Below, in pieces: positions 27,519 to 54,401 of a stretch of 64,000 bases of DNA (positions are counted from its first letter, which is position 1; each line of letters starts with the position of its first letter). The notes under the pieces are model-generated. The model had not been told where the DNA came from. It did no database searches and worked only from the letters and a program-made list of their open reading frames with translations. The DNA is from an uncultured Eubacteriales bacterium (GTDB taxonomy: Bacteria > Actinomycetota > Coriobacteriia > Anaerosomatales > PHET01). The position numbers and the translations under genes are program-made. Location: contig CAZBLH010000002.1 of assembly GCA_964492775.1 (NCBI GenBank), positions 62,615 to 126,614 of the forward strand, read 5' to 3'.

Positions 27519-28033
27519 AGATCTGGGGCTCGGGGCTGCTTAAGGGTATGGCCATCACGATGCGCAACATGTTGCGCACGCCGATCACTGTCCAGTACCC
27601 GCACCAGAAGGTCGTGCTGCCCGAGCGTGCGCGCTGGGCTTTGCAGATGAAGTACGACGAGGCGGGCGAGCACAAGTGCACGGCGTGCCTGATCTGCGAA
27701 CGGACATGTCCCGACTACATCATCGACATCGAGGTCACGACCGCCGAGGACAGAAGCAAGCACATCGACGCCTACACCTATGAGATCGGAGCCTGCATGA
27801 TGTGCGGGCTGTGCGTGGAGGCGTGCCCGTTCGACGCCATCCAGATGGGCAAAGACTACGAACTCGCCCGAACCTCAAGCGAACAGCTCACCATCCGCCT
27901 GCTGGAAGACACTCCGGCAGTCTCGCCGAAGCGCAAAGCCGCGGCTGCGAGTGAGAACTCGGCGCGCACCTCTGCGGCCGAGTCGGCCGCCACCTCCGCC
28001 GCTGAGTCGGCGCCTGAGGAGGTGGGCTCGTGA
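27515..28033 (+). CDS. nuoI: NADH-quinone oxidoreductase subunit I (2x[4Fe-4S]) with a C-terminal Ala/Ser/Glu-rich extension
   Basis: The ATG at 27515 (ATGA overlap) lies inside ORF 27281..28033. The cluster motifs are CTACLICERTCP and CMMCGLCVEACP. A ~40-aa tail contains the tandem SAAESAAT/SAAESAP. Confidence 0.9.
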   Translation: MKIWGSGLLKGMAITMRNMLRTPITVQYPHQKVVLPERARWALQMKYDEAGEHKCTACLICERTCPDYIIDIEVTTAEDRSKHIDAYTYEIGACMMCGLCVEACPFDAIQMGKDYELARTSSEQLTIRLLEDTPAVSPKRKAAAASENSARTSAAESAATSAAESAPEEVGS

Positions 28034-28536
28034 ACGACATCCTCGGAGTGGTCGTGTTCGTCGCACTGGCTGCCTTCTCCATCGGTGGAGCTATGGCGAT
28101 GGTCACCTCGCGCAACGTCGTTCACGCCGCGTACTGGTTGCTCGCGGTCTCGGCCGCTGCCGCAGGGCTCTTCGCACTGCTCGAGGCGGGCTACGTGGCA
28201 CTGATCCAGTTGCTGGTCTACGCCGGTGCCGTCGCGATTCTCAACATCTTCACGATCATGATCACTATGCGTCGTCGGGAAGACGCGGTCCGCCCACGCG
28301 ATCTCTCCTGGACCGGGTTCGTTCTGACCGCAGGCTTCTTCGGGCTCGTGACGTACGCGGTGCTCGGCAGCCCCCTTCCCGAGGCCGTGCCCGTCGCCGA
28401 GTTCCCCGGGTTGCTTGAGTTCGGCAGGCAGCTCTTCTCGGCACAGGGTTGGGCTCTGCCGTTCGAGGTTGCCTCTCTGGTACTCACTGCTGCGCTGGTC
28501 GCCGCGGTGTGGTGGTCGAAGGAGGACGACGAGTGA
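28030..28536 (+). CDS. nuoJ: NADH-quinone oxidoreductase subunit J
   Basis: GTGA overlap with the nuoI stop. It has 5 TM helices and the motif ALIQLLVYAGAVAILNIF. Confidence 0.85.
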   Translation: MNDILGVVVFVALAAFSIGGAMAMVTSRNVVHAAYWLLAVSAAAAGLFALLEAGYVALIQLLVYAGAVAILNIFTIMITMRRREDAVRPRDLSWTGFVLTAGFFGLVTYAVLGSPLPEAVPVAEFPGLLEFGRQLFSAQGWALPFEVASLVLTAALVAAVWWSKEDDE

Positions 28537-28844
28537 GCGTTGGCCTGACGCCATATCTGATCCTCGCGGCCGCGCTGTTCTCGATCGGGTTGTTCGGCGC
28601 CGTCTCGAAGAAGGGTGCCGTGCCGGTGCTCATGTCGCTCGAGCTCATGTCTGTGGCTGTCAGCCTGAACCTGCTCGCGTTCTCGAAGCATGTGACACCG
28701 GAGCAGATGACAGGACAGTACTTCACGGTCTTCTCAATGGTCATCTCGGCAGCTGAGATCGGTATCGGGCTCGCGCTCGTCATCGCGATATACCGCGCAT
28801 CGCGCACCGCCGAGCTGGCCGACATTTCGGACTTGAAGGGGTAG
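28533..28844 (+). CDS. nuoK: NADH-quinone oxidoreductase subunit K
   Basis: The GTG at 28533 (GTGA overlap) lies in ORF 28449..28844. It has 3 TM helices and the motifs LMSLELM and AAEIGIGLALV. Confidence 0.85.
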   Translation: MSVGLTPYLILAAALFSIGLFGAVSKKGAVPVLMSLELMSVAVSLNLLAFSKHVTPEQMTGQYFTVFSMVISAAEIGIGLALVIAIYRASRTAELADISDLKG

Positions 28845-28846
28845 CG

Positions 28847-30778: not shown

Positions 30779-30780
30779 GC

Positions 30781-32238
30781 GTGCTGACCGCTATCGTCTT
30801 CCTACCGCTGCTCGGCGTGCTCGGCTGCGCGCTCGTGCCAAGGAGCCACGCCGGACTCGCCCGCTGGGTCGCGCTCGTTGTCACCGTGGCCGATCTCGTG
30901 CTGGCCGCCGTGATGGTCGCTCGCTTCGCCCCCGATGGCGGGCTGCAGTTTGCCGAGCGGCTCTCCTGGATCCCGCAGGCTGACATCCAGTACTTCCTCG
31001 GCGTGGACGGCATTTCGATGCCGCTGGTCGCTCTCTCGGCGCTCCTGACCTTCCTTGCGGTCATCGCGAGCTGGAAGATCGACGCCAACCCACGCATGTA
31101 CTTCGCGATGATGCTGCTTCTGCAGGTGGGCATGAACGGCGTCTTCTCTGCACTGGACCTCGTGCTCTTCTACGTCTTCTGGGAGCTCGTGCTCGTGCCG
31201 ATGTACTTCCTCATCTCCAAGTGGGGCGGCCCGCGGCGCGAGTACGCGGCGATCAAGTTCTTCCTCTACACGCTACTGGGCTCGGTGTTCATGCTCGTCG
31301 GCATCGTCGCTCTCTACCTCTACACCGGCACCTTCGATATTGTCGAGCTTGCCGAGAAGGGCTCCGCGCTCGCACCCGGCGTCCAGTGGTGGCTGTTCGC
31401 CGCATTCTTCCTCGGCTTCGCCGTGAAGGTCCCGGTCTTCCCGCTGCATACGTGGCTTCCTGACGCGCACGTCGAGGCGCCGACGGCGGGCTCGGTACTG
31501 CTCGCGGGCGTGCTGCTGAAGATGGGGACGTACGGCTTCATGCGGATCTCGCTGCCGGTGCTTCCTGATGCATTCGCGAGCTGGCAGTGGGCGATCGGGC
31601 TTCTGGCGGTGATCTCGATCGTGTACGGAGCGGCGGTAGCCTTCGCCCAGAGCGACCTCAAGAAGCTGGTCGCCTACTCGTCCGTGTCGCACATGGGCTT
31701 CGCCATGCTCGGCATAGCCTCGGGCACGGCTGCGGGACTCTCCGGCGCGATGGCGGTGAATGTGAGCCATGGACTGGTCACCGGCATGCTATTCCTGATG
31801 GTCGGCATGCTCTACGACCGCACGCACACCCGCGAAATCTCCAAGCTCTCCGGCGTCGTTGGGGCGACACCCGTGATCGGTGGCTTACTCGCCTTCGCTT
31901 CCTTCGCCTCGCTCGGCCTGCCCGGCTTGTCGGGATTCGTCGGCGAGTTCCTGTCGCTCCTCGGGGCGTGGGCATCCGCGGCGGTTCCCGCGTGGATGGT
32001 GCTTGTGGCGGCGCTCGGCGTGCTTCTCGGCGCCGCCTACATCCTGTGGATGCTGCAGCGTGTGGCGTTCGGCGAGCCGAGCGAGGCCATGGCCGGCCAG
32101 GCCGACGCGTCGCTTCGCGAGATCGCGACGGTGCTGCCGCTCGTCGCGCTCGTCGTCGTGATCGGCCTGTACTGGTCGTCGCTGCTGCGATACGTGGACC
32201 CCGCGGTTACTGAGCTCGCTCGGCTGCTGGGGGCGTAG
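30781..32238 (+). CDS. nuoM: NADH-quinone oxidoreductase subunit M
   Basis: Motifs are FYVFWELVLVPMYFLI and VKVPVFPLHTWLPDAHVEAPTAGSVLLAGVLLKMG. Confidence 0.9.
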   Translation: MLTAIVFLPLLGVLGCALVPRSHAGLARWVALVVTVADLVLAAVMVARFAPDGGLQFAERLSWIPQADIQYFLGVDGISMPLVALSALLTFLAVIASWKIDANPRMYFAMMLLLQVGMNGVFSALDLVLFYVFWELVLVPMYFLISKWGGPRREYAAIKFFLYTLLGSVFMLVGIVALYLYTGTFDIVELAEKGSALAPGVQWWLFAAFFLGFAVKVPVFPLHTWLPDAHVEAPTAGSVLLAGVLLKMGTYGFMRISLPVLPDAFASWQWAIGLLAVISIVYGAAVAFAQSDLKKLVAYSSVSHMGFAMLGIASGTAAGLSGAMAVNVSHGLVTGMLFLMVGMLYDRTHTREISKLSGVVGATPVIGGLLAFASFASLGLPGLSGFVGEFLSLLGAWASAAVPAWMVLVAALGVLLGAAYILWMLQRVAFGEPSEAMAGQADASLREIATVLPLVALVVVIGLYWSSLLRYVDPAVTELARLLGA

Positions 32239-33609
32239 ATGACCGGCTACTGGCTCATAGCGCCCGAGATTCTGCTGATTGCTGCGGTCGCGTGGGCGCT
32301 CTTTGCCGAGCGGCTGCCCGGCGGCGACCGCTCGGCACCGTGGGTCGGGTTCGTGCTCGCGATAGCAGCAGGTGCCCTGTCGGCACTAGCCACGACGGGC
32401 GCGGCCTACTTCGGCGACCTCATCGTGGTAGACGCGGCGGCGCGTTTTGCGCGTGTGGCCATCGCGGCGATCACGGCACTGTGGATGCTGTGGACCGCAG
32501 GCCGAGGGCGTGGCCGCATCCGCGAGGCGGTCGCGCTCGCTCTGCTGTCGGCGATCGGGTGCCTTCTGATGGCAAGCGCCCAGGAGATCGTCACCATTGT
32601 GCTCGCGCTCGAGCTCGCGACGATGCCGGCCTACGTGCTCATCGGGTACCGGCGCTGGCGGGTGTCGGGGCTCGAGGGAGCCCTCAAGTACTTCCTGCTC
32701 TCGATGCTCACGACACTCGTGATGCTGTACGGGCTGTCGTTCGTGTACGGCCTCACGGGCACCACGCGCCTGGCCGAGCTCGACCTCTCCGGCACCGGCG
32801 CGCTCGGCATCCTCGCCGTCACGCTCACACTGGTCGGCCTGCTCGCCAAGCTTTCGGCCGCGCCGTTCCATTACTGGGCTCCCGACGCCTACGAGGGCGC
32901 CGAGTCCTGGTCCGTCGCGTTCGTATCGACCGTCCCCAAGCTCGCCGGTGCCGTCGCGGTCGTGCGCTTCGTGTTAGCTCTCGCCGACTCCTCGGCCGGG
33001 CTCGGGCCGGCACTGCTCGTTGCATCCGTCACCTCCATGGTGCTTGGCAACCTCGCTGCGCTCTCGCAGGATGATGTCCGGCGCATGATGGCATACTCGG
33101 GTGTGGCCCACACGGGATACCTGCTTCTCGCTGCGGCGACGCTCTCTCCCTCCGGATACGGTGCCGCGGTCTTCTATGCCGCTGCCTATGCGCTCCCATC
33201 GCTCGGCGTGATGCTCGTGGCCGCCGAGGTGGGGGACCGAGTGAGCGACTTCGGCAGCGCCGCCGCCAGACGCCCCGTCGTGGCGTGGTCGGTGGTGGCG
33301 ATGCTCGTCTCGCTGATCGGCATTCCGCCGCTGCTTGGCTTCTTCGGCAAGCTCTACCTCTTCGGCACTGCGGTTGATGCGGGGCTTGGAGTGTGGGTGG
33401 TGCTGGCGGTTGCGATGAGCGTGGTATCCGCCGCCTACTACTTGCGCATCGTGCGCGCCATGTTCGCTACCGATTCGGAGCAGGGGAGCACCGAGGTTCG
33501 CGGATCGGTGGCCGCCGACGCCGCCATCATCGCAACGGCAGTACTCACGTTCGCGCTCGGGCTTGCCGCAGGACCGCTGTTTTCCGCGCTCGGCGCACTG
33601 ATGCCGTAA
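32239..33609 (+). CDS. nuoN: NADH-quinone oxidoreductase subunit N
   Basis: It has LAKLSAAPFHYWAPDAYEGAESW and is the last gene of the operon. Confidence 0.9.
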   Translation: MTGYWLIAPEILLIAAVAWALFAERLPGGDRSAPWVGFVLAIAAGALSALATTGAAYFGDLIVVDAAARFARVAIAAITALWMLWTAGRGRGRIREAVALALLSAIGCLLMASAQEIVTIVLALELATMPAYVLIGYRRWRVSGLEGALKYFLLSMLTTLVMLYGLSFVYGLTGTTRLAELDLSGTGALGILAVTLTLVGLLAKLSAAPFHYWAPDAYEGAESWSVAFVSTVPKLAGAVAVVRFVLALADSSAGLGPALLVASVTSMVLGNLAALSQDDVRRMMAYSGVAHTGYLLLAAATLSPSGYGAAVFYAAAYALPSLGVMLVAAEVGDRVSDFGSAAARRPVVAWSVVAMLVSLIGIPPLLGFFGKLYLFGTAVDAGLGVWVVLAVAMSVVSAAYYLRIVRAMFATDSEQGSTEVRGSVAADAAIIATAVLTFALGLAAGPLFSALGALMP

Positions 33610-33777
33610 GGTGCGCTCGGCCGGCATTACGCTCGGTGGCCTCCGAAGTATGGAGACGCCGTGGACCGCAGCTGTCACCTCCGTGAATCGCGGGCGATCG
33701 GGCACATCGGGGTACAGTAATTGTTTGAGGCCACGTGCAAGAACACCCCATTTCGCTCAGTTCGCGAGGTGAAGCAG

Positions 33778-35103
33778 ATGTCCGCTGACGAGACGTATTC
33801 CGATTCCGAGAACCGCGCCGACACCCGCGCCGAGACGGCCGCCGAGCGACCCACGGTCGCACCGGCGCCTCCTGCCATCCCGCCCGGGCCGCTGCCGGCC
33901 TGCGCCGGCGATGACGAGGTGCCGTGTGTGGAGCCAGTACCGGCAGCGAGTCGACCTTCGGGTGGCGCACTGGTTCTCTCGGCAGCCTTGGGCGCCATCG
34001 TCGGGGGTCTGCTCATCACCGTACTTGCGGCGTGGGCGTTCGGGCTCGTCCCAGGCACGAGCCCGCTCATCAAGCTGCCGTCATCCGGCAGGATTGAGAC
34101 CCCACGACCGACCGAGACGGTCATCAACATCGAGGGTGGCGACGTCAATGCGGTGGCTCAGACCGTTGCCGAGAAGGTCGTGCCGTCGGTGGTAAGCATC
34201 ACCGTCGCGCAGCGCGGCGTCGACCCGTGGACTGGTCAGGAGTTCACGCAGGAGTCCGGTAGCGGCTCGGGCGTGATCATCCGCGAGGACGGCTACATCA
34301 TCACCAACAACCACGTCATCGACGGGGCCGATCGCCTAATCGTCACGGTTGGCGTCGAGGACAAGGAAGCCAAGATCGTGGGCACCGACCCCTCCACCGA
34401 CCTGGCGGTCATCAAGATCGAGGGCTCGGGCTATCCCGCGATTGGCGTCGGGTCCTCAACCGACCTGGTCGTCGGCCAGTGGGTCATGGCCGTGGGAAGC
34501 CCCTTCGGTTTCGAGCGGACGGTGACCGTCGGGGTAGTTTCGGCGCTCAACCGCAGTGAGCTCATGCAGTCCGGCAACGACCTGACCACCTACACGAACC
34601 TCATCCAGACTGACGCCGCCATCAATCCGGGCAACTCCGGTGGGGCGCTCGTGAACGAGGAAGGCAAGCTGGTCGGCATCAACTCGCTGATTCAATCGCC
34701 GTCGGGACAGGTGGGCGCGGCCCAGTCCTCGGGCGTCGGGTTCGCCATACCTGCGGACTTCGCCCTGAGCGTTGCCGAGCAACTGATCGAGACGGGTAGG
34801 GCAACGCACCCGATCATGGGCGTGAGCACCGAGACGGTGAACGAGACCATCGCCGCCGAGTTCGACCTTCCGGTCCGCCGAGGTGCCCTCGTGCGACTCG
34901 TGCAGTCGGGTTCGCCTGCCGAGGCCGCGGGTATCGAGCGCGGCGACATCATCGTGCGCATCGAGGATCGCGAGATCTCGGGTGTCGAAGACGTCTTTGC
35001 GGTCACGCGCTCGCACAAGGTAGGGGACACGATCACGGTGGAGGTCGTGCGGGATGGCGAGCGCAGGACCTTCGACGTCACGCTCGCGTCTGATACCCAG
35101 TGA
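33778..35103 (+). CDS. htrA: HtrA/DegP-family serine protease with a PDZ domain, membrane-anchored
   Basis: This lies in ORF 33721..35103, and I prefer the ATG at 33778. It has a TM helix (ALVLSAALGAIVGGLLITVLAAW), the catalytic triad contexts TNNHVI, DLAVIKI and GNSGGAL, and a PDZ region (GALVRLVQSGSPAEAAGIERGDIIV). Confidence 0.85.
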   Translation: MSADETYSDSENRADTRAETAAERPTVAPAPPAIPPGPLPACAGDDEVPCVEPVPAASRPSGGALVLSAALGAIVGGLLITVLAAWAFGLVPGTSPLIKLPSSGRIETPRPTETVINIEGGDVNAVAQTVAEKVVPSVVSITVAQRGVDPWTGQEFTQESGSGSGVIIREDGYIITNNHVIDGADRLIVTVGVEDKEAKIVGTDPSTDLAVIKIEGSGYPAIGVGSSTDLVVGQWVMAVGSPFGFERTVTVGVVSALNRSELMQSGNDLTTYTNLIQTDAAINPGNSGGALVNEEGKLVGINSLIQSPSGQVGAAQSSGVGFAIPADFALSVAEQLIETGRATHPIMGVSTETVNETIAAEFDLPVRRGALVRLVQSGSPAEAAGIERGDIIVRIEDREISGVEDVFAVTRSHKVGDTITVEVVRDGERRTFDVTLASDTQ

Positions 35104-41234: not shown

Positions 41235-41333
41235 GGTCGGGCCGTTCGGCTCTCGCAAGCGCTCGCGCTACAATGTGCCTGCAAGCCCGTGGCCTTTGTT
41301 GAGGTCACCCTACGGTCATCAGAGAGGTATCAA

Positions 41334-42620
41334 ATGCGCACCGTCAAAGTCGGCCTTATCGGCCTCGGTACCGTCGGTTCGGGTGTCGTAGAGATCATTC
41401 GCCGCCACCGTGAAGACTTCCGTTCGCGCGCCGGCGTCGACATCGAGCTCGTTCGCTTCGCCGACCGCAATACGGACCGCTTCACAGATCTAGGCTTGCC
41501 CGCCGAGGCGTGCACCACGGACGCGTTCGAGCTGCTGCGCGACCCCGAGGTCGATATCGTCATCGAGCTCATCGGAGGCACCGGGGTTGCACGCGAGGTC
41601 GTGCTTGCGGCGCTCGAAGGCGGCAAGAACGTCGTCACTGCGAACAAGGCGCTGTTGGCGAACCACGGGGAAGAGGTCATGCAGGCTGCCGAGAAACACG
41701 GCGTCGACCTCTATTTCGAGGCGAGCGTCGGCGGCGGCATCCCTATCATTGGGCCGCTCAAGCACTCTCTCACCAGCAATGAGATCGACACCGTCATGGG
41801 TATCGTCAACGGCACGACGAACTACATGCTCACCCGCATGGCCGAGGACGGGCTCGACTACGCGAGTGCGCTTGCCGAGGCGCAGGCAAAGGGCTTCGCT
41901 GAGGCGGATCCGACCGCGGATGTCGAGGGGCTGGATGCGGCGGCGAAGATCGCCATCCTGTCGTCAATCGCCTTCAACAGCCGCGTGGTGATGAGCCAAG
42001 TGCCGACCGAAGGCATCACCAACATCACGCCGACCGATATCGCCTACGCCCAGAAGATGGATTCGCAGATCAAGTTGCTGGCAATCGGAAGGCGCGTCGG
42101 CGAGCAGATCGACGTGCGCGTACACCCGACTATGATCCCGAACTCGCACCCGCTTGCGAGCGTTGCCGGCGTGTACAACGCTATCTACGTGATCGGCGAC
42201 TCGGTTGGCAAGACGATGTTCTTCGGCGAGGGTGCGGGCTCGCTGCCTGCCGCATCCGCCGTGGTCGGAGACGTGATCGAGGTCGCCCGCCGAGTGGGTG
42301 CCGGCTGCGTTCCGGCGGTCGGCTGCACGTGCACCGAAAGGCTCGAGGTGCGCGACATCACCGATCTGGAGACCCGCTACTACGTGCGGCTCTTCGTCGC
42401 CGACCGCCCCGGTGTGCTTGCGGCGACCGCGAAGGTCTTCGGCGACAACGGGGTCTCGCTGGCGAGCGTCATCCAGCAGGGGGCGGGCGAAGAGACCGCC
42501 GAGCTCGTCTACGTCACGCACACAGCGCGTGAGTCCGATGTCCGCCGAGCGCTCGAGGGTATTCGCGCACACGAGGCCGTTGCGCGCGTCGAGTCGGTCA
42601 TCCGCGTCGAGGACCTGTAG
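41334..42620 (+). CDS. hom: Homoserine dehydrogenase
   Basis: This lies in ORF 41289..42620, and I prefer the ATG at 41334. Motifs are KVGLIGLGTVGSGV, TANKALLA and GIVNGTTNYML, with a C-terminal ACT-like domain. Confidence 0.9.
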   Translation: MRTVKVGLIGLGTVGSGVVEIIRRHREDFRSRAGVDIELVRFADRNTDRFTDLGLPAEACTTDAFELLRDPEVDIVIELIGGTGVAREVVLAALEGGKNVVTANKALLANHGEEVMQAAEKHGVDLYFEASVGGGIPIIGPLKHSLTSNEIDTVMGIVNGTTNYMLTRMAEDGLDYASALAEAQAKGFAEADPTADVEGLDAAAKIAILSSIAFNSRVVMSQVPTEGITNITPTDIAYAQKMDSQIKLLAIGRRVGEQIDVRVHPTMIPNSHPLASVAGVYNAIYVIGDSVGKTMFFGEGAGSLPAASAVVGDVIEVARRVGAGCVPAVGCTCTERLEVRDITDLETRYYVRLFVADRPGVLAATAKVFGDNGVSLASVIQQGAGEETAELVYVTHTARESDVRRALEGIRAHEAVARVESVIRVEDL

Positions 42621-42623
42621 CGC

Positions 42624-43601
42624 GTGAGAGTCGCCGTAACCGTCCCCGCCACCTCGGCGAACCTGGGTCCGGGCTTCGACAGCTTCGGGCTAGCGCTCGC
42701 CATCCGCAACCGCCTCGAGGCTGAGCTCGCTGACGAGTGGAGCGTAGAGATCGTCGGGGAAGGCGCCGGACGGCTGCGCGCCGACGAAGGCAACGTTGCT
42801 GTTCGCGCCATGAAGTGTGCGTTCGCGGAGGCGGGCCGTCCCGGGCTGCGTGCCCGCATCCGCTGTGAGAATCGCATCCCTGTCGGCGGTGGGCTGGGCT
42901 CCTCATCCTCCGCGATCGTGGGCGGGCTACTTGTGGGCGAGGCGCTTGCCGAGGCCGACTTCGGCGCTCAGCGCAGACTGGAACTTGCCACCAAGCTCGA
43001 GGGGCATCCCGACAACACCGCCGCGGCGCTGAGTGGCGGCTTCACGATCTGCTGGCCTGTGGGCGGCACGGTGCGCGCGGAACGTTTCGAGCCGGTCGGC
43101 GGTTTAGCCGCGGTTGTCGTGCCCGCCAACGAGGCGCTCGCGACGAAGGCGGCGAGGGCCTTGCTTCCGCAGGCCGTGCCGCACGCTGATGCGGCATTCA
43201 ACGTCGCGCACGCTGGCCTTCTTGCTGCGGCGATCGTGACCGGCCGAGCCGAGCTGCTGGCGACAGCACTCGAGGACCGCCTGCACGAGTCCTACCGCGC
43301 TTCGGCCATCGCCGACCTCTCCGCCGTTCGCAATCTGCTCGCTGACGCGGGTGCCACAGGGGTCGCCCTCTCGGGCGCCGGCCCCACTGTGATCGGGCTG
43401 GTGGCGGCCGGGGACGATACCGCCGCGCTTGAGCTTGCCGAGAAGATCGCGGCCGACGCCGCCCACGCCGTCGCAAGGCTCGGAACGCGCCGCGAGCCGC
43501 TGGCGCTCGGCATCGCCCGCGAAGGTGCGCGTGTCGAGATCGACCGCGCGGGACAGACAGGTTGCGGCACCGGCGAGCCGGCTCGAGAAACCGGCCTGTA
43601 G
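42624..43601 (+). CDS. thrB: Homoserine kinase
   Basis: The GHMP kinase motif is PVGGGLGSSSSAIVGG, preceded by an N-terminal PATSANLGPGFD. Confidence 0.9.
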   Translation: MRVAVTVPATSANLGPGFDSFGLALAIRNRLEAELADEWSVEIVGEGAGRLRADEGNVAVRAMKCAFAEAGRPGLRARIRCENRIPVGGGLGSSSSAIVGGLLVGEALAEADFGAQRRLELATKLEGHPDNTAAALSGGFTICWPVGGTVRAERFEPVGGLAAVVVPANEALATKAARALLPQAVPHADAAFNVAHAGLLAAAIVTGRAELLATALEDRLHESYRASAIADLSAVRNLLADAGATGVALSGAGPTVIGLVAAGDDTAALELAEKIAADAAHAVARLGTRREPLALGIAREGARVEIDRAGQTGCGTGEPARETGL

Positions 43602-45553: not shown

Positions 45554-45987
45554 CTCTCCTTATGGTGAATCAACATCCTGACGCGTGAGGCTCACGACGC
45601 ATACACGCTTGAGACTCCCCGTCTGCCGCTGGGCTCTAACATCGGTCCAGCAGTGAGGATAGGTGCAGCCAGCAAGCAGCAGCTCCAGGAACTATTGGGA
45701 GAATCGGAGGTAGAGCGACGGGGCACTCGTTGCAGGCGCACCGTCGAGATCAGGCAAGGAAAGGTGACATGCAGAGCGCAGAAGCCGGAAGACCGGAGTC
45801 CGGAAGGAGCCTGTGTACCTGGGTATGGGGGCGCCAATCGGGATTGGTGCGGGCTTGGGGTCTTGTGGCTCACGCAGGCGAAACGCCTGTCGTGTGGTTG
45901 ACCGCGCGCTCATCGTGGGGAAGAATCTCTCAGTGATCCCCCCGTCCGTCTTCTCGGCGCGACGTGGTCCCCCCAGTGGAGGCGAAC

Positions 45988-47049
45988 ATGGCCGAAGGCT
46001 TCCCGCCCGTCCCCCCTCATGAACCCGCTGCGCAGCGGCATGGCTATGAGCCAGCAGCACCGCCGGTTCAGTCTCACGCCGTGCCCCAGGTGAGGGCAGC
46101 GGCCCCCGCTGGTAGCGCATCGGATCCCAAGAAGAGTAAGGCCAGGATTTGGTGGCTGATCGGCATCCTCGTCTTGCTGGTGCTGCTCATCGGCAGCTGC
46201 GCTGCGCCGCTCATCTTCTTCGCCACCGACAGCTCCAAGGTATCGGTGGGTTCTGGCGACGCAGTTGGCGTCATCCATCTCGACGGCGTGATCGCTGGCA
46301 CGGGCGACAGCCTCTCGGGCGTGATCACTCCCGAGCACTTCCTGTCCCTTCTCGAGCAGGCCGAGCAGGACGATCGCGTCAAGGCAATCCTGTTGCGCGT
46401 GGACTCTCCTGGCGGGACTGTTGCGGCGAGCGAAGAGATATCCCATTACGTCGCCGAATGCCCGAAGCCCGTCGTGGTCTCCGTCGGTGACGTAGGCGCG
46501 TCCGGTGCTTACATGGTCTCTTCTCAGGCCGATGAGATCTGGGCGAACGCTGGTTCTTCGGTCGGTTCCATCGGCGTCATTTCGCAGATCCCGAACGTCA
46601 GCGGGCTGATGGACAAAGTCGGCGTCGAGTTCCAAGTGATTACCGCGGGCAAGAACAAGGACACCGGCAGCCCGTATCGCCAGCTCACCGAGGATGAGCG
46701 GGCGCTCATCCAAGGCGAGGTCGATGACGCATACGAGTTGTTCATAGACCTGGTCGCCACGGGACGCCAGCTGAGCGAGCCGCAGGTCGAGGACCTCGCG
46801 ACCGGCTGGGCGTGGAACGGCGAGACGGCCAAGGACATGGGGCTCGTCGACGAGATCGGTACCTACCGGGACGCCCTGGACGCGGCGGCGGAGCGCGGCG
46901 GCATCGAAGGGGACTACGACATCGTCACCTTCGACTCCGACCCGTTCGAGAGTCTGTTCGGCCCGCTATTCTCCATCACGAGCCGCTTCGGTGGACTCGA
47001 TGCGCTGACGACGCGCGAGTCCCTGATACGCGAGAGTCTGCCCAGGTAA
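45988..47049 (+). CDS. sppA: Signal peptide peptidase SppA (36K type, S49 family)
   Basis: This lies in ORF 45964..47049, and the ATG at 45988 follows GGAGG. It has a TM helix (IWWLIGILVLLVLLIGSCAAPLIFF) and the motifs LLRVDSPGGTV, GASGAYM and GSIGV. Confidence 0.85.
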   Translation: MAEGFPPVPPHEPAAQRHGYEPAAPPVQSHAVPQVRAAAPAGSASDPKKSKARIWWLIGILVLLVLLIGSCAAPLIFFATDSSKVSVGSGDAVGVIHLDGVIAGTGDSLSGVITPEHFLSLLEQAEQDDRVKAILLRVDSPGGTVAASEEISHYVAECPKPVVVSVGDVGASGAYMVSSQADEIWANAGSSVGSIGVISQIPNVSGLMDKVGVEFQVITAGKNKDTGSPYRQLTEDERALIQGEVDDAYELFIDLVATGRQLSEPQVEDLATGWAWNGETAKDMGLVDEIGTYRDALDAAAERGGIEGDYDIVTFDSDPFESLFGPLFSITSRFGGLDALTTRESLIRESLPR

Positions 47050-47070
47050 CACCACCGAGAAGGACGCGCT

Positions 47071-47895
47071 ATGGGAAATCCCACGGTCATCGCCCACATC
47101 TCGGACCTGCACTGCGGGTCGCGCTACCACATCCCGTCGCTCGCCAAGCGCGTTATCGACGAACTCAATGAGCTCGGCCCCGATATCGTCGTGGTCACGG
47201 GTGACCTGACCGACATGGGGTTTCAGCAGGAGTTCGCTCAGGCCGCCCGGCTAATCGGTCAGCTCGAGTGTGAGCATGTTGCTGTGGTGCTCGGCAACCA
47301 TGACGCGCGCAACGTCGGTGACGTGCACTTCACCGAGCTCTTCGGCGAACGCAATACCGAGGTCGTCCACAAGGGCCTGCGTGTCCTCGCGCTCGACTCA
47401 AGCGAACCGGACCTCGACACCGGCCGGATCGGGCGCGAGCGCGCGAAATGGGTGGGGGAGCGATTCGCGACCGACGAGGAGTTCAAGGTGGTGGCGATGC
47501 ACCACCACCTCGTCCCCGTGCCTGGCACGGGCCGCGAACGGAACATCGTGCATGACGCGGGCGACCTGCTCCAGTCACTCGCCTCGTGCGGCGTCGATCT
47601 GGTCCTCTGTGGGCACAAGCACGTGCCGAACGTCTGGCGCCTCGAAGACATGCTCATCGTCAACGCCGGTACATGCTGCACTCACCGGCTCCGCGGCAAG
47701 GTCCGGCCCTGCTACAACATCATCGAGGTCATCGACGGCACGCAGGTGCGTGTGCTGCTGAAGGAGCCCTACGTGGACGCGACTATCGTTGCGGACTTCC
47801 GAGAAGTGAACCGGCGGTACTGCCGTTGGCAGCAGACCGATGCTGGTGAGGCGCTGCCGAGTTCTGGCATCGAGCCTGTGGAGGCGTCTGAATGA
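47071..47895 (+). CDS. Calcineurin-like metallophosphoesterase
   Basis: Motifs are ISDLHCG, VVTGDLTD, LGNHDA, MHHH and CGHKHV. Confidence 0.8.
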   Translation: MGNPTVIAHISDLHCGSRYHIPSLAKRVIDELNELGPDIVVVTGDLTDMGFQQEFAQAARLIGQLECEHVAVVLGNHDARNVGDVHFTELFGERNTEVVHKGLRVLALDSSEPDLDTGRIGRERAKWVGERFATDEEFKVVAMHHHLVPVPGTGRERNIVHDAGDLLQSLASCGVDLVLCGHKHVPNVWRLEDMLIVNAGTCCTHRLRGKVRPCYNIIEVIDGTQVRVLLKEPYVDATIVADFREVNRRYCRWQQTDAGEALPSSGIEPVEASE

Positions 47896-49256
47896 GCCGG
47901 TTGGTCGCACTCATAGACGGGGAGCATTATCCCCCGGTCGTCCGCTCGGCACTCGCGTCACTCGCCGCCGAGCACGAGGTTGCGGCGGCGGTGTTCGTGG
48001 GAGGGACCGAGAAGGTCGACCCCGAGGCTGCGGCTTCTTATGGCGTGCCCGTCGTGGCGCGCACGACCGTAGCGGATGCCATCCTCGAGGCGATTCGCGC
48101 ATACGCGCCCGACGCGCTGGTGGACCTCTCGGACGAACCGGTCGTCTCGGCCGCCGACCGCTTCTCTCTGGCCTCGCTCGCGCTCTCCTGTGGCGTCGGC
48201 TATCGCGGTGCCGACTTCGTCTTCGAGCCCCCGCGGGCGCTCGTCACGACCCGGACGCCGACGCTCGGCATCATCGGCACGGGCAAGCGCGTGGGCAAGA
48301 CGGCGATCTCGGCGTACGTGGCACGCGATCTCAAGCGGTTGGGGACCGATGTGGTGGTGCTCGCGATGGGTCGTGGTGGCCCTGCTGAGCCCGAGATCAT
48401 CTACGGTGACCGGATTGCGCTCACGACCAGTGATCTGCTCGCGGTCGCGCGCGAGGGCAAGCATGCGGCGAGCGACAACTACGAAGACGCTGTCATGAGC
48501 CGCGTGACGACGGTGGGTTGCCGTCGCTGTGGCGGTGGTCTGGCAGGTGAGACCTACTTCAGCAACGTCCCGCAAGGCGCAGAGCTCGCCGATTCCCTTG
48601 GCAAGGAGCTGATACTGCTGGAAGGGAGCGGTTCGGCAATCCCGCCGGTGCACGCGGATGCGACGATTCTCGTGGTCGCGGCCGGGCGCGGTGCGGGCTA
48701 CATCAGCGACTACTTCGGTCCGTACCGACTGGCTCGCGCCGACGTGGTCGCGCTTGCCTTCGCCGAGGAGCCGATGGCGACAGCGGGCGACGTCCAGCAG
48801 TTGCGCGAGGCGATCGGGCGGCTTCGACCGGGCATCCCTGTGGTCGCAACGACCTTCCGACCGCGGCCGATCGAACCCATCGCCGACAAGCGCGTCATCT
48901 TCGCGACCACCGCTCCGCCACAGGTCGCGGACCGTCTCGCCGAACATCTTGCCGAGGACAGCGAGTGTGAGGTGGTCGCCGTCACGACCCAGCTCTCGAA
49001 CCGCGCCGCGTTGCGCGAGGACCTTGCGCGCCACGTAGGCTCCGCGGATGTGATAGTCGCCGAGCTGAAGGCTGCGGCGATCGACGTCGCGGCGGCGGCC
49101 GGGGAGGTCGCCGGCATCCCGACGGTGCTCTGCGACAACGTGCCCGTCGCGCTTGACGACTCCGATCTCTCTGAGATCGTCTCTCAGGCGGCTGCTCTCG
49201 CTGCCGAGCGCGCAATCGAACGCGGTACCGATGACCGGACAGGAGCAGGCTCGTGA
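47892..49256 (+). CDS. Putative cyclic 2,3-diphosphoglycerate synthetase (COG2403-like)
   Basis: The ATGA overlaps the upstream stop. It is 454 aa with an N-terminal ALIDGEHYPPVV and the nucleotide loop IIGTGKRVGKTA. Length and motifs match my recollection of the archaeal cDPG synthetase family, and a 2-phosphoglycerate kinase gene follows immediately. This needs HMM confirmation. Confidence 0.6.
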   Translation: MSRLVALIDGEHYPPVVRSALASLAAEHEVAAAVFVGGTEKVDPEAAASYGVPVVARTTVADAILEAIRAYAPDALVDLSDEPVVSAADRFSLASLALSCGVGYRGADFVFEPPRALVTTRTPTLGIIGTGKRVGKTAISAYVARDLKRLGTDVVVLAMGRGGPAEPEIIYGDRIALTTSDLLAVAREGKHAASDNYEDAVMSRVTTVGCRRCGGGLAGETYFSNVPQGAELADSLGKELILLEGSGSAIPPVHADATILVVAAGRGAGYISDYFGPYRLARADVVALAFAEEPMATAGDVQQLREAIGRLRPGIPVVATTFRPRPIEPIADKRVIFATTAPPQVADRLAEHLAEDSECEVVAVTTQLSNRAALREDLARHVGSADVIVAELKAAAIDVAAAAGEVAGIPTVLCDNVPVALDDSDLSEIVSQAAALAAERAIERGTDDRTGAGS

Positions 49257-50206
49257 CACCCGAACGCGCCCCGACGATCACCATCTCCGACAAGGTGCAC
49301 GGGCTTCCGTTCAGCAAGGGGCTGCTTGCGGCCTCCTTCATGTCGACTGGGCTGCCACCATCGCACGCCTACGCTATCGCGCAGGCTATCCAGGATGAGC
49401 TGCGCGAGCGCGGCGAGCTCGACATCAGCTCGCGCCGGTTGCGCGAGATCGCTGCCGAGTATCTCAAGCGGATGGTTTCTGAGGAGTACGCGGATCGCTA
49501 CATCAAGATGCGGAACCTCTCGGCTCTCGACCGGCCGCTGATCATCCTCATCGGCGGAACCACCGGCGTCGGCAAGTCGACCATCGCCACGGAGGTCGCT
49601 CACCGCCTTGGTATCACGCGTATCTCCTCCACGGATTCCGTCCGAGAGGTGATGCGTGGTATATTCAGCAGAGACCTGATGCCTGCCATCTACGAAAGTG
49701 CGTTCACCGCATGGCGGGGTCTGAGAGTCCCGGTGCCGGAGGGCGCCAATCCCGTGATAGTCGGTTTTCGCGAGCAGACGGCTGCCGTGACCACTGGGGT
49801 GAAGTCGCTCATCGACCGGGCTGTTCTCGAGGGGCTATCGCTCGTGGTCGAAGGCGTGCACCTGGTGCCGGGATACCTCGATGCGGAGAACATCAAGGGT
49901 GCGCTGGTCATCCAGCTTGTCATCGCCGTCGAAGACGAGCAGTCACACCTGAGCCATTTCTACATCCGAGACGTCCAGACAGAGGGCAGCAGACCGCTCG
50001 ATAGGTACCGGACCAACTTCGACGAGATACGGATGTTGGGCCGCTACATAGAAGACATGGCGCGTGAGCATTCGACGCCGATCATTCATAGCCACCAACT
50101 GGACAGAACCGTCGCGGACGTACTGGAGCACATCATCGCGAAGGCAGTACAGGAGACAGAGACCGTCGGGCCCGTGGAGGGTTCGGAGGAGAAAGAGGAG
50201 GAGTAA
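49253..50206 (+). CDS. Putative 2-phosphoglycerate kinase (ATP-cone + P-loop kinase, COG2074-like)
   Basis: The GTGA overlaps the upstream stop. It has an N-terminal ATP-cone-like segment (GLPFSKGLLAASFMSTGL...AYAIAQAIQDEL) and then LIILIGGTTGVGKSTIA...RISSTDSVREVMR. Confidence 0.65.
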   Translation: MTPERAPTITISDKVHGLPFSKGLLAASFMSTGLPPSHAYAIAQAIQDELRERGELDISSRRLREIAAEYLKRMVSEEYADRYIKMRNLSALDRPLIILIGGTTGVGKSTIATEVAHRLGITRISSTDSVREVMRGIFSRDLMPAIYESAFTAWRGLRVPVPEGANPVIVGFREQTAAVTTGVKSLIDRAVLEGLSLVVEGVHLVPGYLDAENIKGALVIQLVIAVEDEQSHLSHFYIRDVQTEGSRPLDRYRTNFDEIRMLGRYIEDMAREHSTPIIHSHQLDRTVADVLEHIIAKAVQETETVGPVEGSEEKEEE

Positions 50207-50869
50207 GTGAAGTTCTTCTTGGACACGGCGAACATCGCCGAGATCGAGGAGGCGGCAAGCTGGGGGGTCCTCGCTGGAGTGACCACCAACCCCACGCTGT
50301 ACGCCCGCGTCGGCGGCAAACTCGCCGACTTCCCCGAGCACATCCGCCGCATCTGCGAGATCACCGACGGGCCGGTCTCTGCCGAGACGGTCGGACTCGA
50401 CCGGGACTCCATTGTCGACGAAGGCCTCTCGCTCGCCGAGATCGCCGAGAACGTCGTCGTCAAAGTCCCGACCATGCCCGAGGGGCTTGCAGCCACCCGC
50501 GTCCTCGCCGAGCGAGGGATCAAGGTCAATATGACGCTGTGTTTCACCGTGCCCCAGGCGCTTCTGGCGGCGCGGTCTGGTGCAGCGTATGTGTCCCCGT
50601 TCGTAGGGCGCTTCGATGACATCTCAGAGGACGGCATCGAGCAGCTCGCCCAGGTCGTCCAGGCGCTCGGCAACTATGACTTCGGACACGACGTCGAGGT
50701 CATCGCCGCGTCGATCCGCTCGGCGAACCACGTGACGCAGGCGGCCCTGATGGGCGCCGACATCGCAACGGTGCCGTTCGCTGTACTCAAGAACCTCGTC
50801 AAGCATCCGCTCACCGATCGCGGGCTCGAGTCGTTTCTTGCCGACTGGGAGAAGGTGAAGAACGCGTGA
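50207..50869 (+). CDS. tal: Transaldolase / fructose-6-phosphate aldolase (short type)
   Basis: Motifs are MKFFLDTANIAEI, GVTTNPTL, VKVP (Schiff-base Lys) and SPFVGR. The GTG comes directly after the upstream TAA. Confidence 0.85.
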   Translation: MKFFLDTANIAEIEEAASWGVLAGVTTNPTLYARVGGKLADFPEHIRRICEITDGPVSAETVGLDRDSIVDEGLSLAEIAENVVVKVPTMPEGLAATRVLAERGIKVNMTLCFTVPQALLAARSGAAYVSPFVGRFDDISEDGIEQLAQVVQALGNYDFGHDVEVIAASIRSANHVTQAALMGADIATVPFAVLKNLVKHPLTDRGLESFLADWEKVKNA

Positions 50870-52218
50870 CGGCCCGTCCGAGGAAGAGAGGCCGCCGTGG
50901 CGGTGGGGGACAGCCGCAAGAGGCGCCGCCGCAGCCGTCGGTGAACCGGGAACAGCTCGCTGCGATGACCGTCGCCGAGCTGCGCGCGATGGCAGCTGAG
51001 ATGGAGCTCGACGTCAAGGCGCTCAAGAAGAAGGACGAGATCGTCGATGCCGTCCTCGAGGCTAAGGTCAAGGCCGAGGGGTTCGTCGAGATCGCGGGCG
51101 TTCTCGACGTGCTGCCCGAGGGGTACGGCTTTGTACGCACGAGCGGCTACCTGCCCGGCGACAAGGACGTATACGTCTCGATGTCGACCATCAGGCGTAA
51201 CGAGCTCAGGCGTGGTGACATGCTCAAGGGTCAGGTGCGCCCGCCCAAGGAGTCCGAGAAGTACCCGGCGCTCCAGCGTCTCGCGTCGGTCAACGGGCGT
51301 GAGCCCGAGGCCGCGCGCAAGCGACCGCGCTTCGTCGACCTGACTCCCGTGTATCCGGATGAGCGTCTGCGCATGGAGCATGGTCCGCAGCACCTGACGG
51401 CGCGTACAATCGATCTCGTGGCGCCTATCGGCAAGGGCCAGCGCGGACTCATCGTCTCGCCGCCCAAGGCGGGTAAGACGACGGTGCTCAAAGACATCGC
51501 GGCGGCGATCACTGCGAACAACCCCGAGGTGCACCTCATGTGCCTGCTCGTTGACGAGCGGCCCGAGGAAGTCACCGATATGGAGCGCTCGATCCACGGC
51601 GAGGTCGTGTCATCGACGTTCGACATGCCGAGCGAGAATCACATCGCCGTTGCCGAACTCGTCATGGAGCGCGCGAAGCGCCTTGTGGAGGGCGGCAGCG
51701 ACGTCGTGATCCTACTCGACTCGATCACGCGTCTCGCTCGGGCCTACAACCTTGCGACTCCCGCCTCCGGCCGCATCCTGTCCGGCGGTGTGGACTCCCA
51801 GGCACTGTACCCGCCCAAGAAGTTCTTCGGCGCGGCGCGTAACATCGAGAACGGCGGATCACTCACGATTCTCGCCACTGCTCTCGTCGACACTGGCTCG
51901 AAGATGGATGAGGTCATCTTCGAGGAGTTCAAGGGCACGGGTAACATGGAGCTGCGGCTCGACCGCAACCTTGCGGACCGTCGCATCTTCCCCGCGATTG
52001 ACGTCATCGTGTCGGGCACGCGCAAGGAGGAGCTCATCCTCGATCCGCAGGAAGCACCCTTCGTCTGGGGTGTCCGCCGCATCCTGCATGGGATCGACAG
52101 CCCCGAGCGCGCCATGGACATGTTGCTCAAGGGACTGAAGCAGACCCAGAGCAACATGGAGTTCCTCGCGAAGATGGCTCGGCGCGCAGGCGACAAGAGC
52201 AACGGCATCGACCTGTAG
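50866..52218 (+). CDS. rho: Transcription termination factor Rho
   Basis: The GTGA overlaps the tal stop. It has an Arg/Gly-rich N-tail and the motifs GYGFVR, APIGKGQRGLIVSPPKAGKTTVL and DSITRLARAYN. Confidence 0.95.
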   Translation: MTARPRKRGRRGGGGQPQEAPPQPSVNREQLAAMTVAELRAMAAEMELDVKALKKKDEIVDAVLEAKVKAEGFVEIAGVLDVLPEGYGFVRTSGYLPGDKDVYVSMSTIRRNELRRGDMLKGQVRPPKESEKYPALQRLASVNGREPEAARKRPRFVDLTPVYPDERLRMEHGPQHLTARTIDLVAPIGKGQRGLIVSPPKAGKTTVLKDIAAAITANNPEVHLMCLLVDERPEEVTDMERSIHGEVVSSTFDMPSENHIAVAELVMERAKRLVEGGSDVVILLDSITRLARAYNLATPASGRILSGGVDSQALYPPKKFFGAARNIENGGSLTILATALVDTGSKMDEVIFEEFKGTGNMELRLDRNLADRRIFPAIDVIVSGTRKEELILDPQEAPFVWGVRRILHGIDSPERAMDMLLKGLKQTQSNMEFLAKMARRAGDKSNGIDL

Positions 52219-52284
52219 AACCCTGCACAATCACGACTGAGGCGGCGTCAATCCGCCTCGGTCGCCGGAGGACCGTCGTCGGAA

Positions 52285-52809
52285 TCAGGACACGCGCTTG
52301 CGCACCTGATACCGGATGACGGTCTTTCCTTTTGGACCCGGGCGCGACTGGTACTCCTCCTCGTGGGGCCCTGCGATCTCGTAGCCTTGCTCCTCGATGA
52401 ACTCGTGGAGCTGCCTGATCGTCGGCGTCTCCTCGGCGTATGTGCCGACGTGGAGGACCTGGGCGACCTCGCCATAGGCCCAGGGCTCGATCGTCACCGG
52501 CGTCTCCGGGTCCTTCTGCTTGAGCTCGCTCGTCCCCTCTGGAATCGGGATAGCCCAGACGGCCTCCCAGGTCTCGCGGGGCCGCTCGGCGAAGTCGGGC
52601 CCTCCCAGCCAGCGCGCGCGGGCGGGTTCGATCCTGTACTCGATGCCCAGCTTCTTGAGGCCGAACTTCAGCCCGTAGACCGCGCCATACAGCGCCGAGA
52701 AGGCCTTCTCCAGCACGTCGTTCGGGTCGCCAACCGTGCGTACGACAGCCATCAGCCGGTCGTCCATCTCGGCAATCTCAGGCACGAAGGGCTTCATCCG
52801 CTTCGGCAT
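52285..52809 (-). CDS. GyrI-like small-molecule-binding domain protein
   Basis: It is 174 aa, and MAVVRTVGDP...YGAVY...HVGTYAEETPTIRQLHEFIEEQGYEIAGPHEEEY fits the GyrI-like/SOUL fold pattern. Confidence 0.5.
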   Translation of the reverse strand: MPKRMKPFVPEIAEMDDRLMAVVRTVGDPNDVLEKAFSALYGAVYGLKFGLKKLGIEYRIEPARARWLGGPDFAERPRETWEAVWAIPIPEGTSELKQKDPETPVTIEPWAYGEVAQVLHVGTYAEETPTIRQLHEFIEEQGYEIAGPHEEEYQSRPGPKGKTVIRYQVRKRVS

Positions 52810-52846: not shown

Positions 52847-53746
52847 TCAGTTCATCATCACTGGCACTTCGACGATGTTTATCCTCGATCCGTCTTTGGC
52901 AGAGCTCTCATAGAAGATGAGCGCGCCGAGCCGTCCGGGATGCGCGTTCGTGAACTCGACGGTCGCGGTCCAGGTCCCCCGGGTGCCGGTTCCGCTGGTC
53001 GCGGTCACGAACTGCTCGGTGACGATGAGCCCCTCTGGGTCGACTACCTCCAGCTGGTGCGTCGCCTCGAAGGTGTTCGAGGACCCCGACGCCGTGACCG
53101 GGCTCGTCACCACCTGTCCGGGGTACGGCTCCTCCACAAGTATCGCAGGTAGTGCGTCTTCGAAGTCTTGCCGGCCGACTGTTGGGCCGATCTTGATTCC
53201 TTCGCCGCCGAGGTTGTCCGTGGGCGTGCCGTCGATCTTGAACGACACACTGTCGATCCCGTCGAACTGGGTGAGCGTGCAGACCACCTGAGCGGCTCGC
53301 AGCTGCATCGAAAGCGAGCCACCACCGGAGGCGAACGCCCCGGTGAGGTCGAGCGTTGCAGTACTGCCGGCAAACTCCACGCCGTTCACGCGCACGCCAT
53401 CCGGGATCGCGGTCGAGAGGCCGAACTCGCGGTCGGTGGCGCTGGGCCCTTCCAGCAGCGCAGCGACCGCTGCCTCAGCGATCGCTTCGGGCGACGTGTC
53501 AGCGGTTACCTCCCGACCTGCGACACCGATCTTCTCGCCTCGCACGAAGTACAGCCGCACGGTAGCGGTCTCCAGCTCGCTTTCGGGTGGGGGTTCGGGC
53601 GTCTCGGGCGTCTCGGGCGCCGATGGCGGCTCGGGAGTGCGTCTGCAGCCGAGCGCGGATCCCATGCCGCCCACGAGCACCACGGCCAGAGCGAAGCACA
53701 GCAGCAGAGTGATCCGAGCCTTTGCGCGTTCATTCATGTACCTCAT
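52847..53746 (-). CDS. Lipoprotein with a GerMN domain and a C-terminal Ig-like (Gmad2-type) domain
   Basis: This lies in ORF 52847..53980, and the ATG at 53746 or 53737 gives a lipobox (GMGSALGC). [17 protein letters not shown]...[11 protein letters not shown] is GerMN-like. The C-terminus [27 protein letters not shown]...[10 protein letters not shown] is Gmad2-like. Confidence 0.6.
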
Positions 53747-53969
53747 GGCCCACCCCGATTGCCGAGATTTTGCTGTCAGTGAGGTGATACCCCGTTTGCC
53801 TGGCACACCCTGCCTCGGCGCGGGAATCGGTCCGCCTCGAGCGCCCGCCTCCGCTGTGTCCACGGGTGCTGGCGGATGCTCCGCAACCGTGCTAATATTC
53901 TCGGGCTGTCCTCGCTGCCCTGGTCGGAAACCAGGACTACGAAGCGAGGCATCACACGGAGGTGTACAC

Positions 53970-54401
53970 GTGAAAGCCAAGATCCATCCGAACTACGAGC
54001 TGACCACCATCGTCTGCTCGTGTGGCAACCGTTACGAGACCCGCTCGACCGCAGGCGGCGAGCTGCACGTCGAGCTCTGCAACCAGTGCCATCCGTTCTT
54101 CACGGGCCAGCAGAAGTTCGTTGACACCGGTGGACGCGTCCAGCGCTTCTCCGACAAGTTCGGTTCGGCCGCTACTTCGGTACTCGAGAAGGAGGCCGCC
54201 GAGAAGGAGGCCCGCCGCAAGGCCGCCGAGGAAGCTGCAGCCGCAGCGAAGCAGGCCCGCGAGGCCAAGGCTGCCGAGAAGGCCGCCCGCGCTGCGCAGC
54301 ACGAGGCGAAGGCTGCTCGTGACGCCGCGAAGGCCGGCACCGATGCTGAGCCGGCTGAGGCCGAGGCAGCCGTCGAGGCCACCGAGGAGTCGGCCGAGTA
54401 G
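53970..54401 (+). CDS. rpmE: 50S ribosomal protein L31 (Zn-ribbon type A) with an ~80-aa Ala/Glu/Lys-rich C-terminal extension
   Basis: The GTG at 53970 follows GGAGG and lies within ORF 53343..54401. The core [24 protein letters not shown]...[25 protein letters not shown] matches E. coli L31. The tail is [50 protein letters not shown]... Confidence 0.85.

Follow-up and report, generated by a model that had tools for sequence, protein, structure and literature searches.

In reviews and recent enzymology papers, cyclic 2,3-diphosphoglycerate (cDPG) is said to be confined to methanogens that are (hyper)thermophilic (PMC10690619, PMC12136491), and it is treated there as a thermoprotective extremolyte. 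The archaeal enzymes convert 2-phosphoglycerate to this cyclic pyrophosphate by a route that consumes two ATP (PMC12136491, PMC1224877), and the compound has been interpreted as a side branch of gluconeogenesis that stores carbon and phosphate (PMC1224877). An activity that hydrolyzes cDPG is known from Methanothermobacter thermautotrophicus, where the enzyme is membrane-bound and both K+ and inorganic phosphate inhibit it (PMC1224877); in the literature searched, no gene has been assigned to it. We describe here a 64,000-nucleotide stretch of contig CAZBLH010000002.1 (the window) from an uncultured Coriobacteriia-like (OPB41-type) actinobacterium, in which homologs of cDPG synthetase (CpgS) and 2-phosphoglycerate kinase (2PGK) are encoded directly behind a soluble calcineurin-type metallophosphoesterase (MPE). 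These three genes form a module that is conserved in bacteria, and it is probable, though well short of assured, that the module both makes cDPG and breaks it down, with the MPE as the proposed hydrolase. The core genes of the module are as follows.

47071-47895, plus strand: soluble calcineurin-type metallophosphoesterase, 274 amino acids (PF00149, 68.2 bits against a cut-off of 21.5).
47892-49256, plus strand: cDPG synthetase homolog (CpgS), 454 amino acids (E value 1.5e-120 to 8ORU/8ORK).
49253-50206, plus strand: 2-phosphoglycerate kinase (2PGK) homolog, 317 amino acids (NF003259, 312.3 bits; PF03477, 29.7 bits).

A comparison of the 454-residue protein with the crystallized cDPG synthetase of Methanothermus fervidus shows homology over essentially the full length, with query residues 3-425 aligned by phmmer to residues 5-437 of the chain and 46% identity in a MAFFT alignment. 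A second deposited cDPG synthetase, 9SXB, is matched with an E value of 2.5e-103. The Walker A motif GTGKRVGKT occupies residues 129-137 (GTGKRxGKT is shared with the M. fervidus enzyme), the motif LIDGEHYPP is also present, and the family-specific N-terminal domain of about 127 residues, which has a unique fold, is recorded as PF27272 (CpgS_N) in the annotation precomputed for the identical protein sequence and retains its GGTEK motif. In the M. fervidus enzyme, 2,3-diphosphoglycerate (2,3-DPG), Mg2+ and ADP are bound by K145, R146, K149, T150, D208, E305, T353, E404 and K406, and E45 and K46 reach the substrate site from the partner subunit (PMC10690619). All 11 of these mappable ligand or catalytic residues are identical in the window synthetase and in the six bacterial relatives aligned with it; the residue reported as P335 maps ambiguously onto the window protein, in which the FRPxP motif is kept.

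Window equivalents of M. fervidus E45, K46, K145, R146, K149, T150, D208, E305, T353, E404 and K406: E40, K41, K132, R133, K136, T137, D195, E292, T340, E391 and K393.

The Pfam and NCBIfam copies searched hold no model for this family and returned no match for the protein, while PGAP and IMG call its close homologs "2,3-diphosphoglycerate synthetase". A generic MobB/CobQ-like NTPase, considered as another identity for the protein, is ruled out by the full-length CpgS homology and the conserved ligands. The differences from the M. fervidus system lie instead in the host, a bacterium that is unlikely to be a hyperthermophile, and in the genetic setting: translational coupling links the window synthetase gene to those for a kinase and a phosphoesterase, whereas 19 Methanobacteriaceae loci have an isolated synthetase gene.

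The 317-residue protein matches the NCBIfam model of the archaeal 2PGK family (NF003259/PRK04220; COG2074) from end to end (residues 8-303 on profile positions 5-297 of 306, E value 3.5e-93). The next families score 152 bits and then 78 bits, the latter being mevalonate-3-phosphate kinase, so that 2PGK is by far the best assignment and a different P-loop kinase is not indicated. As in the archaeal family, an ATP-cone domain (residues 23-89; PF03477 cut-off 25.8 bits) is combined with a P-loop, GGTTGVGKST, and the gene is paired with one for cDPG synthetase. The score narrowly misses the formal cut-off of the model, and on its sequence we file the protein as a member of the 2PGK family. A search for a solved structure of a kinase relative that would permit residue-level comparison found none. 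Taken together, the two proteins can be identified as cDPG synthetase and 2PGK with good confidence on the strength of homology. The first-pass annotation of this DNA, made from the letters alone, had proposed both identities, and they held up, as did its coordinates for the three open reading frames, the overlaps between them and the motifs it quoted.

A close archaeal counterpart of the gene pair is found in Thermococcales. In Thermococcus paralvinellae (locus L086), a synthetase gene, whose product is a close relative of 9SXB, is likewise followed by an overlapping gene for an ATP-cone/P-loop kinase, which is 36% identical to the window kinase (E value 2e-56). Unlike the window, this locus has no adjoining MPE of the window subfamily; a gene with a Metallophos domain lies 5 kb away, and BLASTP does not match its product to the window MPE at an E value of 0.01. 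The neighbor of the Thermococcus pair is a mannosylglycerate-synthase-like glycosyltransferase, in place of the transaldolase and rho genes of the window, and genes for what may be two solute pathways thus lie side by side at L086 4467-8171.

In the window, the stop codon of the MPE gene and the start of the synthetase gene overlap in ATGA (47892-47895, in the context TCTGA ATGA), and the synthetase and kinase genes overlap in GTGA (49253-49256). The MPE itself has all five metal-binding motifs of its superfamily intact (DLH-12, GDLTD-44, GNHD-75, HHH-144 and GHKH-181). It is predicted to be soluble, with no transmembrane segment and no signal peptide, and its maximum Kyte-Doolittle score over 19 residues is 1.19, compared with 2.82 for the peptidase SppA encoded upstream, which served as a control. 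The nearest folds to its confident structural model (pLDDT 80) are GpdQ (2DXL), a glycerophosphodiesterase, and Rv0805 (3IB7), a class III cyclic-nucleotide phosphodiesterase, with TM-scores of 0.62-0.69 and identities of 21-24% (22-24% for Rv0805 in the sequence comparison). These two proteins are its best matches in both sequence and fold, and share with it the binuclear fold and the five catalytic motifs. The window MPE differs from them in the conserved link to cDPG genes and in Arg-rich motifs of its own, GRxGRxR, HHHxxPxPGTGRERN and RLRG, which are invariant or nearly so in its subfamily and, judged from sequence, would fit a substrate with many negative charges. Against the curated cAMP phosphodiesterase model NF008359 the protein scores 38.6 bits, where the cut-off is 225. 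An anti-phage defense system was also considered for the module and rejected: PADLOC produced a partial match of 32 bits for the MPE and none for the other two proteins, and DS9_1 scored 67 bits against a cut-off of 420.

The first-pass annotation had guessed that the phosphoesterase belongs with the two enzymes, and comparison across genomes strengthens that guess. Counting loci with enough upstream sequence, among which are a few duplicate contigs, the MPE gene is directly upstream of the synthetase gene in 55 of 67 bacterial loci, and the 2PGK gene is directly downstream in 63 of the 67. The adjacency of MPE and synthetase holds at synthetase identities down to 40-50%. Approached from the other side, with metagenome loci gathered by using an alignment of the MPE as query, a synthetase gene lies directly downstream of the MPE gene in 44 of the 66 loci that extend far enough downstream, and slightly further on in 2 more. 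The link outlasts the loss of SppA, of transaldolase (Tal) and even of an adjacent 2PGK. Away from the chromosomal slot that the module occupies in the window, between the threonine gene thrB and rho, the triad recurs in L090 in the order MPE-CpgS-2PGK-GlpX, with every junction overlapping. In the Cloacimonadota contig L088 the order is instead CpgS-2PGK-CBS-MPE, and the MPE is a tandem of the window subfamily whose N-terminal half is 35% identical to the window protein (E value 2e-46). Adjacency is thus kept between deeply diverged bacteria and under two different gene orders, and the association of MPE with synthetase is strong, although not exclusive.

Some variants of this arrangement deserve description in their own right. 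The Cloacimonadota MPE (L088 8733-10232) is a 499-residue protein with an internal tandem duplication, and the stand-alone CBS-domain protein encoded before it could be a regulatory partner; a metagenome scan with this tandem MPE as the single query found no relatives. In a group of soil metagenome contigs (L098-L121; e.g., L099 3969-9860) the genes run argS, a phosphonate-binding-type (PhnD-like) protein, MPE, CpgS, GlpX and rho, with no 2PGK adjoining the synthetase, and the kinase must be encoded elsewhere in these genomes or be absent.

We propose that the module carries out a cycle of synthesis and breakdown. The kinase would phosphorylate 2-phosphoglycerate to 2,3-DPG, and the synthetase, at the cost of another ATP, would join the two phosphates in a cyclic pyrophosphate to give cDPG. 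The soluble MPE would provide the return leg, opening the anhydride (cDPG to 2,3-DPG), removing a phosphate (2,3-DPG to phosphoglycerate and inorganic phosphate), or both. Such a cycle would fill and empty a pool of an anionic solute rich in phosphate, carbon and energy that branches off lower glycolysis and gluconeogenesis. Assigning the MPE as the hydrolase of cDPG or 2,3-DPG is more tentative than the identities of the synthetase and kinase, and taken by itself falls a little short of probable. The chemistry is plausible for a metallophosphoesterase, a superfamily that includes pyrophosphatase-type, diesterase and monoesterase members, and genes for the synthesis and breakdown of a reserve compound share operons elsewhere, as in ppk-ppx. 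The genes that recur beside the module also suit the proposal. Transaldolase is frequent, with 2PGK, Tal and Rho all following the synthetase in 58 of the 103 loci that have enough downstream sequence, and the fructose-1,6-bisphosphatase GlpX (11 loci) and the cofactor-independent phosphoglycerate mutase iPGM (2 Bipolaricaulota loci) recur less often. As enzymes of gluconeogenesis or of steps that feed it, these partners agree with the published placement of cDPG on a branch of gluconeogenesis (PMC1224877). A different purpose for the module, the supply of 2,3-bisphosphoglycerate as cofactor for a cofactor-dependent phosphoglycerate mutase, was considered and is unlikely, the cultured OPB41 relatives having the cofactor-independent mutase (PMC9686372).

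Several observations weigh against a make-and-break cycle of this kind. About 12 of the 67 bacterial loci (~18%) lack the MPE, as do 21 of 21 archaeal synthetase loci, and some 30% of the sampled members of the MPE subfamily (20 of 66) are not beside a synthetase; these 20 loci hold mostly the more divergent MPEs, along with a few at ~50% identity in unrelated contexts (e.g., L128). Transaldolase and rho are just as syntenic as the MPE, so that adjacency alone can reflect an inherited gene order. The kinase falls under the equivalog cut-off of NF003259 (312.3 versus 343 bits). The archaeal hydrolase activity is membrane-bound while the window MPE is soluble, a point at which the two systems differ, as they do in the lack of such an MPE from the archaeal loci examined. 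A synthetase and a hydrolase translated together would also need regulation to avoid a futile cycle. Finally, the literature searched contains no report of cDPG in any bacterium.

The first of these points are also those that favor the best-surviving alternative, in which the pathway is real and the MPE is a bystander, a general cyclic-nucleotide or glycerophosphodiester phosphodiesterase placed there by inherited gene order like SppA, Tal and rho. In addition to its absences, its occurrence elsewhere and the equal conservation of Tal and rho, this explanation can call on the identity of the nearest solved relatives, Rv0805 and GpdQ, and on the names CpdA and Icc that databases give to MPE homologs. 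It accounts less well for the recurrence of the triad outside the thrB-rho slot (L090) and its rearranged form in an unrelated phylum (L088), for adjacency to the synthetase that persists where SppA, Tal or even 2PGK is lost, or for the poor cAMP phosphodiesterase score and the low identity to Rv0805 and GpdQ. We regard a bystander role for the MPE as unlikely, while giving it appreciable weight.

A second alternative holds that the chemistry differs in bacteria, the enzymes acting on some other phospho-acid, or the MPE serving as a biosynthetic phosphatase that finishes another product according to the synthase-plus-phosphatase logic of compatible solutes. The sub-threshold kinase score, an identity of only 46% to the characterized synthetase and the lack of bacterial cDPG in the literature searched could all be read in this way, as could the lineages in which MPE and synthetase occur with no adjacent 2PGK (the soil group above) or in which the synthetase has neither partner (e.g., P0125, Bipolaricaulota). 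Opposed to this are the complete conservation of the 2,3-DPG, Mg2+ and ADP contact residues in the window protein and its six bacterial relatives, and the nature of the recurrent partners, since iPGM, GlpX and Tal are all sugar-phosphate enzymes and iPGM directly interconverts 3-phosphoglycerate and 2-phosphoglycerate. A different product is therefore improbable in our estimation.

The first-pass annotation had suggested, if its reading were right, transfer of an archaeal pathway between the domains and, as one of two possible roles, thermoadaptation; the distribution of the family does not sustain the transfer framing. In a set of 5.8 billion proteins, 7,858 of the 8,000 synthetase candidates scored at E ≤ 1e-10, and clustering at 50% identity gave 1,020 clusters at E ≤ 1e-3, 636 at E ≤ 1e-10 and 202 at E ≤ 1e-30. 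At least 568 species genomes encode the synthetase, and many of these are bacterial. Among the bacteria that carry it are Coriobacteriia-like and other Actinomycetota metagenome-assembled genomes (MAGs), Candidatus Aquicultor, Bipolaricaulota and Cloacimonadota, and among the archaea are Methanobrevibacter, other Methanobacteriaceae and Thermococcus. NCBI and IMG already label bacterial proteins as "(cyclic) 2,3-diphosphoglycerate synthetase", so that the naming of the two core genes is not new; no description appears to exist of the three-gene module conserved in bacteria or of its candidate hydrolase. Literature searches on diphosphoglycerate in OPB41, Coriobacteriia, Bipolaricaulota or MAGs turned up no paper that treats the bacterial genes, and the supplement of the paper on the OPB41 isolates does not mention cDPG genes.

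Within the window, the module is set inside a backbone of argS-lysA-hom-thrB and rho-rpmE-thyX-DUF1385-prfA, and it occupies the same slot between the threonine genes and rho in three further actinobacterial loci (L089, L091 and L092), whose synthetases are 44-45% identical to that of the window. Its G+C fraction of 0.64-0.66 is within the range of the window (0.616-0.688). Neighbor-joining trees of the synthetase with 200 bootstrap replicates resolved shallow clades only, leaving the deep nodes without resolution. In these trees the window protein groups at 100% with Coriobacteriia-like sequences, its nearest neighbors are all actinobacterial and the archaea are among the most distant sequences, and a split of all archaea from bacteria was recovered in 0 of 200 replicates. 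Because the family is widespread in bacteria, the G+C content is native and the thrB-rho slot is shared at 40-50% synthetase identity, we conclude that the module is not a recent archaeal import. The pattern agrees with long-standing vertical descent within a large clade of actinobacteria. An ancient transfer between the domains is possible in either direction, neighbor-joining trees of this kind giving no reading of which.

The thermoadaptive role that went with the transfer framing is not indicated either. Records of close relatives carry the names of peat (palsa), groundwater and sediment samples, which we take to describe their habitats, and Methanobrevibacter, a mesophilic rumen genus, also carries the synthetase. 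An estimate of growth temperature from the composition (IVYWREL fraction) of the window proteins came to ~61 °C, but four proteins shared with the relatives named for peat and groundwater have similar IVYWREL values, while MAGs with much higher values stand apart. The estimate was therefore discarded as uninformative, the index reflecting lineage rather than temperature and not marking the window as thermophilic. Among isolates of the order, growth optima of 30 °C and of 47-60 °C are on record (PMC9686372). Since the record names of many relatives suggest groundwater, peat and sediment, a thermoprotective role for the module is doubtful. Recent transfer of an archaeal thermoprotectant pathway is thus very improbable, even though (hyper)thermophilic methanogens are the source of the solute and of the characterized enzymes (PMC10690619, PMC12136491), 2PGK has been counted among the characteristic archaeal genes found in bacteria (PMC1274311) and the composition estimate is nominally high.

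The storage of phosphate and carbon, which was raised as another possible role in the first-pass annotation, is plausible, and we favor a role as reserve or solute over thermoprotection. If the module functions as proposed, the main meaning of cDPG would shift from a thermoprotective extremolyte to a general phosphate and carbon reserve or anionic solute. More broadly, and much more tentatively, cDPG may be a widespread bacterial metabolite, serving as a phosphate, carbon and energy reserve or solute in a large, anaerobic and mostly non-thermophilic clade of Actinomycetota and in scattered other phyla, with the Arg-rich MPE as its hydrolase. The MPE also offers a concrete candidate gene for the breakdown of cDPG, an activity known in M. 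thermautotrophicus (PMC1224877), and the module may be a source of enzymes, from hosts that are not hyperthermophiles, for making cDPG by biotechnology, which is the aim of PMC12136491.

The module is part of a string of six tightly packed, co-directional genes on the plus strand (45964-52218) that encode SppA, MPE, the 454-residue synthetase, the 317-residue kinase, transaldolase and Rho. The remaining genes of the string and the features at its borders are as follows.

45898-45926, plus strand: sigma-70-like promoter match TTGACC-17-AAGAAT, 5' of the SppA gene (promoter scan).
45964-47049, plus strand: signal peptide peptidase SppA (S49) (PF01343, 171 bits; TIGR00706, 212.7 bits against a cut-off of 155).
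50207-50869, plus strand: small transaldolase/fructose-6-phosphate aldolase (TalC/FSA type), 220 amino acids (TIGR00875, 260.7 bits against a cut-off of 245.95).
50866-52218, plus strand: transcription termination factor Rho, last gene of the string (TIGR00767, 644 bits).
52234-52264, plus strand: G+C-rich hairpin of 12 bp with no U tract, 16 nt past the rho stop codon (-27.9 kcal/mol, z = -2.1 against shuffles).

The coupled string was correctly extended beyond the kinase in the initial reading of this DNA: the TAA stop codon of the kinase gene abuts the GTG start of the transaldolase gene (50204-50209), and the transaldolase and rho genes overlap in GTGA (50866-50869). A gap of 21 nt separates the SppA and MPE genes, which are on the same strand, and a Shine-Dalgarno-like GGAGG, AGGAG or GAAGG precedes each start codon by 7-10 nt. 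SppA has one transmembrane segment and is present upstream in only some of the related loci, and it is probably a mere syntenic neighbor of the module. The string is bordered upstream by a divergent gene and downstream by the 12-bp hairpin, which is likely the end of the transcription unit. The promoter match is the only candidate start for the six genes; as the scan returned 1 site where 0.8 would be expected from shuffles, it is not significant by itself and constitutes weak evidence.

Further features of the window lie outside the module. The homoserine dehydrogenase gene is followed directly by that for homoserine kinase (41289-43601, plus strand) with no threonine synthase gene between them, while L089, L091 and L092 have the order hom-thrC-(thrB), with an ApgM-like phosphomutase in the position of thrB in L091. 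Between rho and rpmE, a gene for a protein with Germane and Gmad2 domains, of the spore-germination type (52847-53980, minus strand), lies beside one for a GyrI-like protein (52285-52809, minus strand), and the two interrupt an otherwise conserved rho-rpmE adjacency. No RNA gene other than that for a tRNA-Thr(CGU) (23669-23744, plus strand) was detected in the 64 kb of the window. A strongly negative AT skew, of -0.25 to -0.29, at 28000-34000 falls on a run of three Proton_antipo_M genes (nuoL/M/N-like, 28847-33609), and is a matter of membrane-protein codon composition rather than a foreign island. Ribosomal protein L31 (53943-54401, plus strand; PF01197 at residues 11-74) carries a low-complexity C-terminal tail of ~75 residues rich in Ala, Glu and Lys, which makes it about twice the usual length.

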